From assembly GCF_022045235.1 (NCBI RefSeq), contig NW_027266286.1, positions 744,001 to 808,000 of the forward strand: 64,000 nt of DNA. Direction: 5' to 3'. The notes beneath the pieces were generated by a model. It was not told the DNA's origin and did no database searches. It was given only the letters and a program-made list of their open reading frames with translations. The position numbers and the translations under genes are program-made. Of the stretch, positions 6,193 to 55,784 are shown piece by piece. Source of the stretch: Haliotis cracherodii. Its lineage: Eukaryota. The first letter of the stretch is position 1; each line of letters begins with the position of its first letter.

Positions 6193-6698
6193 AGTTACAT
6201 TACTGTAGTGACGTGTCCATAATCAGTTGCTGCAGTATATTGGTCCTGTTTCAGAAGTGATGGCTGCCAGGGCTGCAGGTGGTTGCAGTGGTGAAGAAGG
6301 TCAGTAAGTAAAAGACAAGCAGAAGATGATAATTAGATTGTCAACTTTTTGCAAAAGAAGGAGGTTGTTTTCAGTACAGCTAGCTAATGATCAATACACA
6401 TTTGACAAAACCACTACACAACATCTGGGCACTGAAAATTAGTCATTCCGGCATGTGGATGCTTTCTTACAATTTTGTTATAAATTCTGTTCAGTCTTTG
6501 TCAAAATCTAACAGCTAATCTATGTCTCTCTGTGTATATTTTGATAAATTATCATGATAAAACAATAAAAGCTATATTTCTGTCTTGTTTAGGTTAAGAT
6601 GACTATCTGCTAAGCACGCTTAGATGAAGCAATGTCACTTACTGCAGATGACGGGGTCTGCACGAGTAGGTCACCGGTTGCCACTGGAGTGAGTGGAT

Positions 6699-7325
6699 CC
6701 GTGAAGATCTGGGGTAGAATAGGTCTTCAGCATCCCATGCTTGCTGTGAAGATCAGGGCCCACTTGCACAAAGCGATCTTAGCGCTACGACTCTTGTAAG
6801 CCTATGTTAAAGCATAGGAGTTACGATCATCTTAGCGCTAAGATCGCTTTGTGCAACTAGGCCCTGGGGTAGAATAGGTCTTCAGCATCCCATGCTTGCT
6901 GTGAAGATACGGGGTAGAATAGGTCTTCAGCATCCCATGCTTGCCGTGAAGATACGGGGTAGAATAGGTCTTCAGCATCCCATGCTTGCTGTGAAGATCT
7001 GGTGTAGAATAGGTCTTCAGCATCCCATGCTTGCCGGGAAGATACGGGATAGAATAGGTCTTCAGCATCCAATGCTTGCCGGGAAGATCTGGGGTAGAAT
7101 AGGTCTTCAGCATCCCATGCTTGCCGTGAAGATACGGGGTAGAATAGGTCTTCAGCATCCCATGCTTGCCGTGAAGATCTGGTGTAGAATAGGTCTTCAG
7201 CATCCCATGCTTGCCGTGAAGATCTGGTGTAAAATAGGTTTTCAGCATTCCATGATTGCTGTGAAGATACGGGATAGAATACGTCTTCAGCATCCCATGC
7301 TTGCCGTAAAAGACGACTATGCTTG
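6699..7325 (+). repeat. Tandem array of the 45-bp SINE A head, about 11 copies
   Basis: gtgaagatctggggtagaataggtcttcagcatcccatgcttgcc repeated, then exiting into gtaaaagacgactatgcttgt (SINE continuation). Confidence 0.95.
6757..6863. mobile_element. 107-bp palindromic MITE (PIF/Harbinger-like)
   Basis: 31-bp TIRs GGCCCACTTGCACAAAGCGATCTTAGCGCTA / GGCCTAGTTGCACAAAGCGATCTTAGCGCTA (2 mismatches), flanked by CAG and CTG. Inserted at the CTG of a GAAGATCTGGGG array unit. Confidence 0.8.
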
Positions 7326-32156: not shown

Positions 32157-33677
32157 TTATATGTGCTTCTTTGATTTCATCTTCAGAGGTGTTGGCGTTG
32201 TAATGTTGGCGAGAACTTTTTCAAGGTATGTCATTGATTTATCAAAGTTTGCCTGAAGTTTATCAAAATATTTGAACACAGTCTTGTCCTCGGTGGTCGT
32301 GGTACATTTCATGCCGTAATTAGACACACAGCGCCGGTAGTGATGGAGATAGGCAACATCGGGGTGGCTCTTCACGGGTGTCCAGCGTTCCTCGTTTTGT
32401 TTGCTGATATGGTGGATCCCCACCTCGAACACCCTCCGTGGCATCACCATGACCTTGGTTCGAACATGACTAAACTGCTGTGATCTGACCGTGTGGCCCA
32501 TCGTCAGCAGCCCCGACGGATGGTTGATGCCGTGACTCGGGTCAAAGAAGGCACTAGAGAATGACACCCCGCAATGTTTGTCCCCAATGAGTCCCGGAAT
32601 AAATTCATTCCATGTTTTTGCAGCAGTATGTGGAATTATAAACTCGTCCACGTCGTTGATGGCCATGTGCTTCATGGTGCTCATTGAGCGATACATGCAG
32701 TCGTTATGGGCCAGCAGCTGACCGTGGTACCAGATGGACTTGTCAACAACCTCTTTGGGTAACTTCCAGGGAATGAGCGTCACAAGTTTACGAGAGTGAT
32801 AATGTTTTAGAATTTCGGCCATTTCATTTGTGATAGAATAATTATAAAAATAGAAATGTTCTGCACCTAATAACATTGAGAGTTCTAAGAACTCGACTAG
32901 AATGTCACTCTTGATTTTACCAAACAAAGGTGGTATACAGATACCGTATTCGTATGGTTTTGTAACCATGGCAACAGGGACAATTGGCACCGAGACTAGT
33001 CTCTGGCCTGCTATAGTCTTTATCTTCACAGGGCAGAGAGTACCATTTGTGATGGGACACGAGTAGATATACCCACCAAATTGCTTGTTATGATTTTCAC
33101 ACATTTCGTATGGTTTTGTCGACATTTCAGTGCCGTCCCCAAACACACATGTCATGGTGAATTTGTACCGTCTATCTTTGGCAACTAACATGATGAAACG
33201 AATAAACTTCTGTTTTTTTCGATCATCCAGATATGCAGAATACACATACACACCCCTCTCGAGTTCCCGGAATCTGCCCACTCCAAAGTCGTCTGATTTC
33301 CTCATACAGTTTTTGCCGAGGTCAAGATCCCCGTTGTCATCAACTTTTGGAGGTGTTGTGTTGATGATCAGCTCGCCCTTGACCTTGTCCACCATTTTCT
33401 CAAGGTTAGATATTTCTTTGGCCAAATTTTTCACATTATAGTAATTCCTTACCCATCCCTTTAGACCCTCGACACTGGCATTGAAGACCACATCGGGAAT
33501 TTTCTCTCGTATTGCCGAGGTAGTTGTTTTATCTGGTTCAGTGTCGACAACAGCACTGATTGGTCGATCAACCTGAAGTCGGCTATGGAACAACAGCACC
33601 ATGCAGAGATACACGCCACACAGCAACAGCAAAAAACGTTTGAAAGTCATTGATCGGAAAAAGTGCTTTTTCATCAT
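32157..33677 (-). CDS. Glycosyltransferase family 92 (DUF23) protein, beta-1,4-galactosyltransferase GALT-1-like, type II membrane protein, 506 aa, single coding exon
   Basis: Only long non-repetitive ORF. Short basic N-tail, then a hydrophobic TM segment (FLLLLCGVYLCMVLLF) and a stem. GT92-type motifs follow: VYSAYLDDR, ICIPPLFG, LVEFLELSMLLGAEHFYFY, WYHGQLLAHNDCMYR, DxD motif DVDEFIIP, KVMVMPRRVFEVGIHH, LHHYR. Confidence 0.92.
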   Translation of the reverse strand: MMKKHFFRSMTFKRFLLLLCGVYLCMVLLFHSRLQVDRPISAVVDTEPDKTTTSAIREKIPDVVFNASVEGLKGWVRNYYNVKNLAKEISNLEKMVDKVKGELIINTTPPKVDDNGDLDLGKNCMRKSDDFGVGRFRELERGVYVYSAYLDDRKKQKFIRFIMLVAKDRRYKFTMTCVFGDGTEMSTKPYEMCENHNKQFGGYIYSCPITNGTLCPVKIKTIAGQRLVSVPIVPVAMVTKPYEYGICIPPLFGKIKSDILVEFLELSMLLGAEHFYFYNYSITNEMAEILKHYHSRKLVTLIPWKLPKEVVDKSIWYHGQLLAHNDCMYRSMSTMKHMAINDVDEFIIPHTAAKTWNEFIPGLIGDKHCGVSFSSAFFDPSHGINHPSGLLTMGHTVRSQQFSHVRTKVMVMPRRVFEVGIHHISKQNEERWTPVKSHPDVAYLHHYRRCVSNYGMKCTTTTEDKTVFKYFDKLQANFDKSMTYLEKVLANITTPTPLKMKSKKHI

Positions 33678-33819
33678 GCTTGTGTTTTAATTCAGAGGTT
33701 GAAAACTCAGACCGGTGATTATTAGTTTTGACAAGAAAGTTTCAGTTACATGTGAAAACATGCATTATCTCCCTTTGTTTGTGAATAGCAGCCACACTTG
33801 CCTGCAGGTATGCAGCTAT

Positions 33820-36407: not shown

Positions 36408-36980
36408 CAGTCTTCACTCTTTAGTGTTACCCGGGAAGATCCAGGGTAGAATAGGTCTTCAGCAACCCATGCTTGCACTGAAGATCCAGGGTAGAATAGG
36501 TCTTCAGCAACCCATGCTTGCCGTGAAGATCCAGGGTAGAATAGGTCTTCACTCTTTAGTGTTACCCGTGAAGATCCAGGGTAGAATAGGTCTTCAGCAA
36601 CCCATGCTTGCCGTGAAGATCCAGGGTAGAATAGGTCTTCAGCAACCCATGCTTGCCGTGAAGATCCAGGGTAGTATAGGTCTTCAGCAACCCATGCTTG
36701 CCGTGAAGATCCAGGGTAGAATAGGTCTTCAGCAACCCATGCTTGCCGTGAAGATCCAGGGTAGAATAGGTCTTCAGCAACCCATGCTTGCCGTAAAAGC
36801 AACTAAGCTTGTCATTAGAGGCAACTAACGGGATCAGGTGTTCAGACTTGCTGGCTATGTTGATGCATGTCATAGTATCACAATTGCCTGGATCAATGCT
36901 CATGATGACAGTCACTGGATTGTCTGGTCCAAACTTGATTATATACAGTCTGCCGTCATATAGCTGGAATATTGCTGAGT
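36408..36980 (+). repeat. Second tandem array of the 45-bp SINE A head (about 8 copies) followed by the SINE body
   Basis: gtgaagatccagggtagaataggtcttcagcaacccatgcttgcc repeated to about 36800, then the SINE body to gctggaatattgctgagt. Confidence 0.93.
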
Positions 36981-53062: not shown

Positions 53063-54114
53063 TCCTGCCTGCCCATGTTCAGGTCAAAACAACCTGCACT
53101 AAAATGGGAATCCAGAAATGTTCTCCAAGACAAACCTCCAGATTCTTGTTGAGTCTGAGATCAAACAGACTTTGAAGGATTGGACATTGGGGAGGCTGAC
53201 ATTTGACAAGACCTTCAATTATAAAACATAGAGGCCCAAGTGGTATTCATATTTTTATCACAATAACAAATAAATAATGAACCTCTTGTCACAAATCTCA
53301 AAAAGTGTCTTTCTTAACGGGTGTGCAGCCCTGTTCCTGAAAATACTGGGGAAGAAAATAATTTGAAATTTACAAAAAGAAAGAAATTGTTCACAGAACA
53401 ATAACAAAAATATTATTGCCTGGCTCCTTTCTTCAGAGAAACAACAAATGTCTTATAAATGTGCTGAGTGAAACAGTCAAACAAAACACATCCCACCCCA
53501 ACCCCCACCCCTCTCAGTACAGAAGACACCAGTAGGACTGTACCAGGTAGTGCTGTATGCTCAGTGGGAAATGTCATCTCTTGTCAGTAGATCAAATCTT
53601 TATAATGTTTTTACTTGTTGTTTAAGCAGGATTTGCCTGTAGCAATAACAGAGTTAACAAAACCCTCCACTAAGTCTCACACTTTTATTGCCAGATCCCC
53701 CCCTCAAGCTTCAGCCTGGATGAGAAATGCTAGCTCCATCTATACATTACATACAGCACTCTGTCCCTTGGCTTACAACCTCACACTTGATGTTATCATA
53801 TTCAACACGTGGGCTGCCAGCTCTCGGTCTGGGCAGGTCTGTCAGAAACTTATGATCCTGGGTTCAAATCTGGGTTTACCCTGTTTATGTTTCTAGGTGT
53901 GTTGCACTAGACCCATGCTCATCAGCCTTCAAACTTCCCACTTTCCCGAGACTGAACTGTGCTGCGGACAGTTAAATATCCAATGATGGTAGTCCTCAGT
54001 GACTAGTGTTTGTTTGTTTGTTTGTTTGTTTGTTTGTTTGTTTGTTTGAGGCCAGATGTTTGTTTCTGTGTTGTTTAACGCTGCACTCAGAAATAGTCCA
54101 GCTATATGACAGTG

Positions 54115-54207
54115 CATCACTTGCTTGATAAAGGTGTTAGGATCTACACCGAAACGTCGCACTAATTGTAATAAAGAAGTTGTTCATCCGTAGAACTCGT
54201 CTTACTT
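54115..54207 (+). mobile_element. Penelope-like element (PLE) terminal fragment inserted in a SINE
   Basis: Perfect 12-bp direct repeat tatatgacagtg at 54103-54114 and 54208-54219 flanks a 93-bp insert interrupting a minus-strand SINE. The insert has a hammerhead core followed by AATAAA (54170-54175). Confidence 0.7.
54122..54161 (+). ncRNA. Minimal type I hammerhead ribozyme (U3:A8 variant, extra A after A9)
   Basis: TGC-TTGATAA-A-GGTGT(taggatct)ACACC-GAAA-CG-TC-GCA. Stem I is TGC/GCA, stem II is GGTGT/ACACC, palindromic ACGT replaces stem III, and the cleavage triplet is GUC. Confidence 0.7.
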
Positions 54208-54344
54208 TATATGACAGTGGTCTGTAAATAATAAAGTCTGGACCAGACATTCCAGTGATTGACATCATGAGCATCAATTGGGATACGATGACATGCATCA
54301 AAAAAGTCAGCGAGCCTGACCACTCGAACCCATTAGTCGCCTCT

Positions 54345-54972
54345 TATGACAAGCCTAGTTTCCTATTACAACAAGCCTAGTCTCCTATTACGACAAGCCT
54401 AGTTTCCTATTACGGCAAGCCTAGTTTCCTATTATGACAAGCCTAGTTTCCTATTACAACAAGCCTAGTTTCCTATTACGGCAAGCCTAGTCTCCTATTA
54501 CTGCAAGCCTAGTTTCCTATTACGACAAGCCTAGTTTCCTATTACGGCAAACCTAGTTTCCTATTACGACAACCCTAGTTTTCTATTACAGCAAGCCTAG
54601 TCTCCTATTACGGCAAGCATAGTTTCCTATTACGACAAGCCTAGTTTCCTATTACGGCAAGCCTAGTTTCCTATTATGACAAGCCTAGTTTCCTATTACG
54701 ACAACCCTAGTTTCCTATAACGGCAAGCCTAGTCTCCTATTACGACAAGCCTAGTCTCCTATTACGACAAGCCTAGTCTCCTATTACAGCAAGCCTAGTT
54801 TCCTATTACGACAACCCTAGTTTCCTATTACGGCAAGCCTAGTCTCCTATTACGGCAAGCCTAGTTTCCTATTATGACAAGCCTAGTTTCCTATTACGAC
54901 TCCCCTAGTCTCCTATTACGACAAGCCTAGTCTCCTATTACAACAAGCCTAGTTTCCTATTACGAAAAGCAT
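54345..54972. repeat. SINE-derived minisatellite, 22-bp unit, about 28 copies
   Basis: gacaagcctagtttcctattac, continuous with the minus-strand SINE A and ending in aagcatgg. Confidence 0.95.
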
Positions 54973-55784
54973 GGCAATCATTCTGAACCAGTTCTCAATG
55001 CTTCAAAATTACAAACTGGAACCAAAAATAACTAACACAAAATGTAAACATTGTAAACATAGTAAACATAGTAAACATTTTGTTCTTGTTAAATCAGGAT
55101 GAGCTACAAACTTAACATTTTTATGAGACTACGCATGGGTTTTGCTTAAGTGGAAATGTCTAAGACCTACATAACTGCAGGTATTCATCCCACATCAAGC
55201 TCACACACTGAAATACCTAAAATACTGTTCAGAGTGACATTAGACTGACTCACTCACTGTAGCTACTGATGCCATCAGCTGTTACTTGCTCACACACCCA
55301 TGGCTATACAGTTCCAAAGTAAAGTGTATTGAGTCACAGAGCCCTCGGCCAAACAGCCAGGCCGCTATCTCACAGCATTTGGGGAAGTAATATTCACTGA
55401 ATGCATGATTGTGTGTGTGTCTCATGTAGGAATATGCCTTCCTCTGTCAAGATAAATCTATTTAAAACTCTGTTTTTCAATGCACTGACACAGTGATATT
55501 CTGAAATATGACTTGTAATAACTGTCCTCGAACTCTGAATTAGCATATAGATTTATTTAATCTTTCCTCAGGAGATATTTATGTTTGTGTGTCGGTGAAA
55601 TGGCCTGATCTGTTATTATGTAACCCTTCCTAATGTCTTCTTCCTCCTAGTTTCAAAAGCACCTAAAAAGTGTATAACCTTTTGTCGGGCACAATAATCT
55701 GTATGAGGAAGCAGTGTGTAGTGTCGGTGTGGACTTTGTTTTATGATGGTTAGGTTAGGTTCTTGAGAATATTTCCATTTTGAT

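Follow-up and report, generated by a model that had tools for sequence, protein, structure and literature searches.

A hammerhead-bearing Penelope/Poseidon-type terminal-repeat stub in Haliotis cracherodii and the position of LINE insertions relative to TATA boxes

We analyzed a 64-kb stretch of Haliotis cracherodii DNA (hereafter the window) and found that, judged by its sequence, a 93-bp insert in it derives from a young Penelope/Poseidon-type (EN+ PLE) retroelement, whose terminal-repeat end it represents. In the H. cracherodii genome, an RNase H-bearing LINE is often inserted at a set position relative to TATA boxes, and this positioning is statistically firm. The stub alone matters little; the LINE result would matter more.

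The insert, its host repeat, and its parent element

The earlier note had described a perfect 12-bp target site duplication (TSD) around the insert. The two copies of TATATGACAGTG were indeed identical at 12/12 positions with 93 bp between them, and the 12-mer occurred only twice in the whole 64-kb window, both times flanking the insert. Since the target site was present just once in 7/7 printed paralogues of the host repeat (L036–L042), the 12-bp repeat is a true TSD. The order of motifs was also as described: TGC (54122–54124), TTGATAA (54125–54131), A (54132), GGTGT (54133–54137), ACACC (54146–54150), GAAACGTC (54151–54158), and GCA (54159–54161), with 8 nt separating GCA from the AATAAA (Table 1). 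The 35-nt tail found in other copies, which carries the ATG of the element's ORF (+101), was absent from this stub.

Table 1. Features of the insert and its surroundings (window coordinates; element positions count from hammerhead U3 = 0)
Feature	Position	Strand	Basis
Left TSD copy, 12 bp	54103..54114		direct comparison; single in host paralogues
PLE pLTR stub, 93 bp, −10 to +82	54115..54207	+	match to genomic loci; RT/GIY-YIG ORF in longer copies
Initiator-like CATCACT, putative parent transcription start	54115..54121	+	5′-end pile-up, TATA spacing
Minimal type I hammerhead, predicted cut after 54158	54122..54161	+	motif search, covariation, fold; PMC4209133
AATAAA, likely polyadenylation signal of parent 3′ pLTR	54170..54175	+	sequence; function putative
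3′ end at the "short" preferred site, putative RT initiation site	54201..54207	+	arm-end counts; PMC11167929
Right TSD copy	54208..54219		direct comparison
3′ part and (CAAA)n tail of SINE-like host repeat	54009..54110	−	paralogue comparison
Body of SINE-like host repeat, running into a 22-bp minisatellite from its head	54208..54376	−	paralogue comparison

The host repeat was short, dispersed, and non-coding, with a simple-repeat tail that reads (CAAA)n on the minus strand, and a first look at the genome gave 4174 candidates, part of them from the insert itself. The earlier identification of the host as a SINE stood as far as a dispersed repeat with a simple tail is concerned; no tRNA-derived head was found in four fuller copies, and from these sequence features the repeat is likely a SINE. 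A short motif in its head recurs in supplement 4 of PMC4758252, an alignment of mollusc SINEs. The host repeat was 82–90% identical to its paralogues and the insert 99–100% identical to its own relatives, indicating that the insert is the younger of the two.

Four other PLE stubs (L032, L033, L034, and L035) likewise had their 3′ end in the SINE-like repeat, no more than about 25 bp away from where the window's stub is inserted; these loci were picked by a query spanning stub and host repeat, so that their clustering is selection-dependent and demonstrates no hotspot. In four runs from other animals, the contigs broke at a microsatellite or repeat, one of them (X2) reaching 2 bases into the insert from unique flank. 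The head of the SINE-like repeat had expanded into minisatellites at 54334–54985 (22-bp unit), 6696–7215, and 36429–36702 of the window. A single-exon 509-aa frame with a GT family 92 domain (E 1e-40) lay at 32160–33686 on the minus strand, opposite to that of the insert and some 20 kb distant from it, and a C/D-box snoRNA-like stretch was seen at the locus of one host-repeat paralogue (L038:2171–2242, minus strand; ceN53 model, 38.7 bits, under the gathering score).

A genome search with the 93-mer gave 1732 first-look candidates, 40 of which were scored; among the 30 loci compared, one (L001) was identical at 93/93 positions and 28 others at 92/93. The existence of other genomic copies was borne out by 422 exact copies of the 36-nt hammerhead (control, 0) and by 639 exact copies of a 26-nt word from the 3′ part of the stub. 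Longer copies ran into an ORF with an RT domain (PF00078, 33.6 bits; cutoff, 29.6) and a DKG motif, followed C-terminally by a visible GIY-YIG motif whose Pfam score (20.5 bits) was under the cutoff of 22.6. This agrees with the 5′ extension that the earlier note had proposed to look for and with its option of a PLE piece, the stub being the pLTR of coding copies. PMC8557442 describes the DKG motif and a zinc-finger linker between RT and EN in Neptune and Nematis but not in Penelope/Poseidon; the PLE ORF translations contained no such linker. One locus (L112) showed a hammerhead end with tail, the ORF, and then a second hammerhead, and none of 10 RT-selected loci fetched wide had a fully intact ORF. 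Other PLE features were present in the family, namely pLTRs, an adjacent inverted copy, an optional 30–40-bp tail, and a TSD.

The hammerhead and the ends of PLE copies

Thousands of minimal hammerheads of PLE origin are known. From its sequence, the insert carries one of these, of type I with a U3:A8 pair and a palindromic ACGT, derived from a Penelope-like element. The 3:8 pair of the catalytic core lies at 54125/54130; an unpaired A54132 is bulged between 9 and 10.1, G54133–C54150 forms the 10.1–11.1 pair, and ACGT at 54154–54157 replaces helix III. Stem I has 3 bp and stem II 5 bp. The earlier note had suspected that so short a stem I might make this copy inactive; 3 bp is the family norm and not a copy-specific decay, and stem I is 2–3 bp in related families. 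The window's 46-nt ribozyme region was the commonest variant in the examined loci (67 of 166 motif matches, overlapping loci counted; the descriptor demanded AATAAA, so that its presence there is no test).

Core and stems covaried as had been anticipated: 5 of 10 pairs were changed on both sides (0/500 shuffles), including U3:A8 to C3:G8 in one related family, in a gap-free set of six hand-picked sequences from four families in which four of the five double changes came from a single sequence (L150). The predicted fold contained stems I and II but was no more stable than shuffles (z −1.14 for 46 nt and +0.38 for 93 nt), and when two copies were cofolded they paired through stem II and did not form the active dimer. 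The search with Rfam hammerhead models, also suggested earlier, gave no match at E ≤ 10 in the insert and none at E ≤ 1 in four related loci; these models expect helix III. The view of U3:A8 as a natural compensatory variant agrees with PMC4209133, which describes minimal hammerheads in metazoan PLE pLTRs, with the U3-A8 variant in the Cercyon elements of Schistosoma, and reports that they act as dimers with low in vitro activity.

To map where PLE copies begin and end, we used 84 arms selected by the 3′ 26-mer alone from the first 100 of the 639 places listed; 16 places were omitted, 12 of which were already in other samples (including three LINE-joined, four short, and four long copies). The 3′ ends fell at +81 to +87 in 39 arms, at +112 to +121 in 41, and elsewhere in 4. 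The 5′ ends fell at −10 to −3 in 29 arms, with the peak split between −10/−9 and −4/−3, at −18 to −11 in none, at 0 to +54 in 42, and further upstream in 13; 42 arms reached −3, and 29 of these stopped within 8 nt. In a hammerhead-picked, position-ordered sample that overlaps the 84 arms, 20 of 30 copies began at −3 to −14. X-drop alignment produced false ends where subfamilies differ (−40 and some −148 ends). Shared ends, raised in the earlier note, thus exist for 80/84 arms on the 3′ side and for the 5′ peak, and do not extend to the half that start at 0 to +54. Among 22 head-to-head pairs, 21 combined a short end with a long one, and a TSD of at least 7 bp (mode, 13–14) was present in 18. 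Single-arm stubs with a clean TSD were a minority; two were seen, the second (L211) spanning −10 to +81 with a 14-bp TSD.

The parent of the window's family carries TATATATA at −39, and the TATATA there lies 30 nt before A−9 and is absent from the insert. TATATA was found at −38 in three of four copies of a family 67–69% alike in the ORF and in one copy of a third family. Over these two other families, four of seven printed copies had the TATA at −38, the rest comprising one at −34, one TATAAA variant, and one truncated copy.

These ends and motifs suggest a PLE transcription start at about −9, and we consider it probable that the stub is a solo pLTR piece made by internal RT initiation and run-off at that start; having left the TATA box behind, the stub is likely dead. 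PLE RNA would start near −9, downstream of the TATA box at −39, and its 5′ end would carry, in order, the hammerhead, AATAAA, a first RT start (+83), the ATG (+101), and a second RT start (+118). RT copying to the RNA 5′ end would give 93 nt from +83 and about 128 nt from +118. PMC11167929 describes such a Poseidon RT: its two internal start sites flank the tail, it extends both strands, and its template is uncut RNA. The GIY-YIG domain would cut both target strands about 12–14 bp apart, and each cut end could prime a cDNA to give a head-to-head pair of a short and a long arm, or a single arm; priming at each end would account for the common pairs with one arm of each kind. The window insert would be a single-arm run-off product without its own promoter, in which the hammerhead rides uncut as a passenger and would cleave only with the help of a partner copy or of the protein encoded by the element. 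With RT starts in the mRNA 5′ end, run-off copies would dominate and full copies would arise only by reading through the poly(A) signal, so that the fixed ends of the stub offer a testable explanation for the small size of most PLE copies.

The main competitor, which we regard as unlikely, is an ordinary 5′-truncated copy of a long read-through PLE RNA, in which RT pausing, RNA processing, or microhomology would produce the pile-up. Heavy 5′ truncation is typical of PLEs (PMC8557442), and the 42/84 arms that begin at scattered points within or after the hammerhead show that ordinary truncation occurs too, which counts against run-off. Random 5′ truncation nevertheless fits badly because 29/84 5′ ends pile up at −10 to −3, and the stopping of 29 of the 42 arms that reach −3 within 8 nt also speaks against this competitor. 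As to processing, a candidate site is the splice-acceptor-like TTTAG at −22 to −18, and a Drosophila virilis intron ends at helix I (PMC4209133), but no arm began at −18 to −11, where a spliced junction would fall. Also against truncation, the TATA spacing is retained across families with differing letters in between, and the LINE treats the PLE site like other TATA promoters.

An independent, tiny non-autonomous element (SINE- or retrozyme-like) with its own RNA, moved by the PLE protein, was the other option of the earlier note and would accord with the near-constant ends and the large number of copies; non-autonomous PLE derivatives do exist (PMC8557442; bioRxiv 2026.07.22.740005). We consider it very improbable, because the stub is 99–100% identical to the pLTR of coding copies and the TATA at −39 falls outside it. 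The tandem retrozyme-like units once envisaged were not seen either: the 84 arms contained one partial head-to-tail duplication (L177) and no tandem arrays. Insertion of RNA products cut by the hammerhead in vivo is hardly to be entertained. The covarying core and stems would favor it, as would the five arms (four loci) of 84 that start exactly at +34, the predicted 3′ cleavage product; however, among the first 100 of 677 listed matches, ends at +31 and +35 were about as frequent as at +34 (by eye, mixed families), the window insert spans the cleavage site uncut, and cleavage is not needed in the system of PMC11167929. Run-off at the transcription start is thus the reading that we prefer.

LINE insertions and TATA boxes

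In 10 of the 30 loci of the 93-mer search, PLE sequence was joined at −19 to −15 to a LINE that encodes RNase H and ends in (GTAA)n or (GTCA)n, and joins were also present in 4/30 position-ordered copies and 5/10 loci picked by PLE RT, involving PLE families 67–70% alike. A strict hammerhead directly followed the LINE tail in 6 of 59 non-query loci. At 6/8 wide loci, PLE sequence flanked the LINE left and right and was duplicated over about 4–97 bp, and insertion of PLE into LINE tails was rejected on this ground. Specificity of the LINE for PLE sequence was likewise rejected, since most LINE 3′ ends lie elsewhere, and the retained tail letters argue against a splice-junction origin of the join, which we also set aside. 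At L046, L049, and L166–L168, one PLE site was occupied by a stack of two or three LINEs from different subfamilies, each copy with the TSD. Joins with no PLE upstream (L137, L140, L024, and L019) had no clear TSD and may be composites moved by the PLE RT.

An intact full-length LINE (L107:5678–9001 and L173:1–3290; G000:C1, about 19,005,200–19,011,300) sits in a PLE pLTR, where it separates the TATA box from the initiator. It has an open ORF1 of 549 aa from stop to stop, an ORF2 with APE, RT, and RNase H, a (GTAA)4 tail, and an 11-bp TSD. ORF1 gave no Pfam match and shows CCHC knuckles by eye, and this domain layout suggests an I-group-like LINE. The genome holds 3398 exact LINE 3′ ends.

We then considered 99 LINE 3′ ends picked by LINE sequence, of which 47 (among loci L054–L082, L143–L172, and L245–L304) were kept as having a 5′ junction and a TSD of at least 7 bp (range, 7–13 bp); one kept site (L077) was also stacked. 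The other 52 comprised 36 with no TSD, five past the locus edge, four with duplicate flanks, four with no match, and three stacked. TATAWA began 17–23 bp before the TSD at 26/47 sites, compared with 0–4 sites in other 9-bp windows, 0.8% of random window positions, 0/11 SINE heads, and 2/84 PLE flanks. A looser TATA motif was present at 37/47 sites against a background of 4.1%. The 17–23-bp window was chosen after the first 18 sites (10 positive), and 16 of the 29 sites examined afterward were TATAWA-positive. Seven of the 26 positive sites are PLE promoters and 19 lie outside recognized PLE families, two sharing one repeat, leaving about 20 distinct target sequences. Over the 47 sites there was no nick consensus, base counts being flat at −12 to −1 with signal only at −21 to −13, and the conserved nick target of R1/Tx1-type sequence-specific elements was absent. 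The LINE TSD ends about 30 bp past the TATA box, where transcription should start, and the TATA boxes at these sites are presumably active promoters.

Another LINE family that encodes RNase H, ending in (CAA)n and with 215 exact 3′ ends (L305–L335), had a spacing of −21, in a small sample, at L305 and at three of five other TSD sites, one of the five being without upstream DNA; copies of both families stack at shared sites. Separately, a LINE at L148:1558–2349 lies downstream of a TATA box and upstream of the ATG of an ORF with a FLYWCH domain (PF04500), which is likely the gene of a DNA transposon, and L058 looks similar by eye.

We lean, by a modest margin, toward an animal I-group LINE lineage that targets Pol II TATA promoters by position, captures the host promoter, and parasitizes PLE. 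Its first nick would fall about 20 bp past the TATA box and its second at about +30, and its own 5′ end would land on the host transcription start, thereby capturing the promoter. The PLE pLTR promoters would be a frequent landing site, as the three samples of joins above (10/30, 4/30, and 5/10 loci) suggest, and it is in this sense that the LINE would parasitize PLE. By analogy with TRE5 and Ty3 (PMC5911963), we prefer tethering by TBP or the pre-initiation complex over direct reading of TATA DNA by the LINE machinery, the rival account; selection, as a further cause of the spacing, could not easily give a 7-bp window. If this reading is correct, LINE insertions would show where active TATA promoters lie and give an independent marker of the PLE start at the edge of the 93-bp stub. 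The LINE would also repeatedly create promoter mutations in this animal and offer a way to study the tethering of an APE-type element to a host factor, and a non-LTR retrotransposon aimed at the Pol II core promoter would represent a new targeting mode, the Pol II counterpart of TBP-based targeting by TRE5 and Ty3. Such targeting is possibly unreported: a search by title and abstract, with Repbase reports and most subscription journals outside it, found no description of promoter- or PLE-targeting LINEs, and TATA is unmentioned in the main text of PMC4245944 on Nimb-2_DR.

Comparison with known systems

The hammerhead shares with the metazoan PLE hammerheads of PMC4209133 the U3:A8 core, one unpaired base before helix II, G10.1–C11.1, palindromic positions 15–16, a short helix I, and mostly single or opposite-strand copies. 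Helices II and I have 5 and 3 bp here, compared with 7–8 and 4–5 bp in Schistosoma and 6 and 2 bp in D. virilis, and the present family is young and uniform. The non-LTR retrozymes described in bioRxiv 10.64898/2026.07.22.740005 share the type I hammerhead and PLE ancestry but form head-to-tail arrays, whereas the window insert is a single stub. The Penelope of Adineta vaga (PMC3846280) shares TATATATA and a TCACT initiator in the pLTR, the inverted 5′ pLTR, the optional tail, and solo pLTRs. Its TSDs are 8–10 bp, compared with 12–15 bp here, and its solo copies are described as lacking TSDs and ascribed to recombination, whereas the window's solo stub has one. Poseidon PAc of Anolis (PMC11167929) shares the two 3′ ends about 35 nt apart, the tail overlapping the ORF start, and priming on both strands; its ATG lies inside the hammerhead, in contrast to 100 nt past it here, and the 5′-end pile-up seen here is absent from the available description of that element.

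For the LINE, the nearest likeness is to the dictyostelid TRE5/NLTR-A elements and Ty3, which PMC5911963 describes as targeted by TFIIIB (TBP, Brf1, and Bdp1). They share with the present LINE a fixed promoter distance with no cut-site consensus, and TRE5 is also an APE-type LINE. They target Pol III genes, whereas the present LINE is found in an animal and lies, in the same orientation, downstream of a Pol II-type TATA box and upstream of the start. According to PMC4640811, most target-specific non-LTR families are of the RLE, Tx1, or R1 kind, whereas the LINE described here appears I-group-like.
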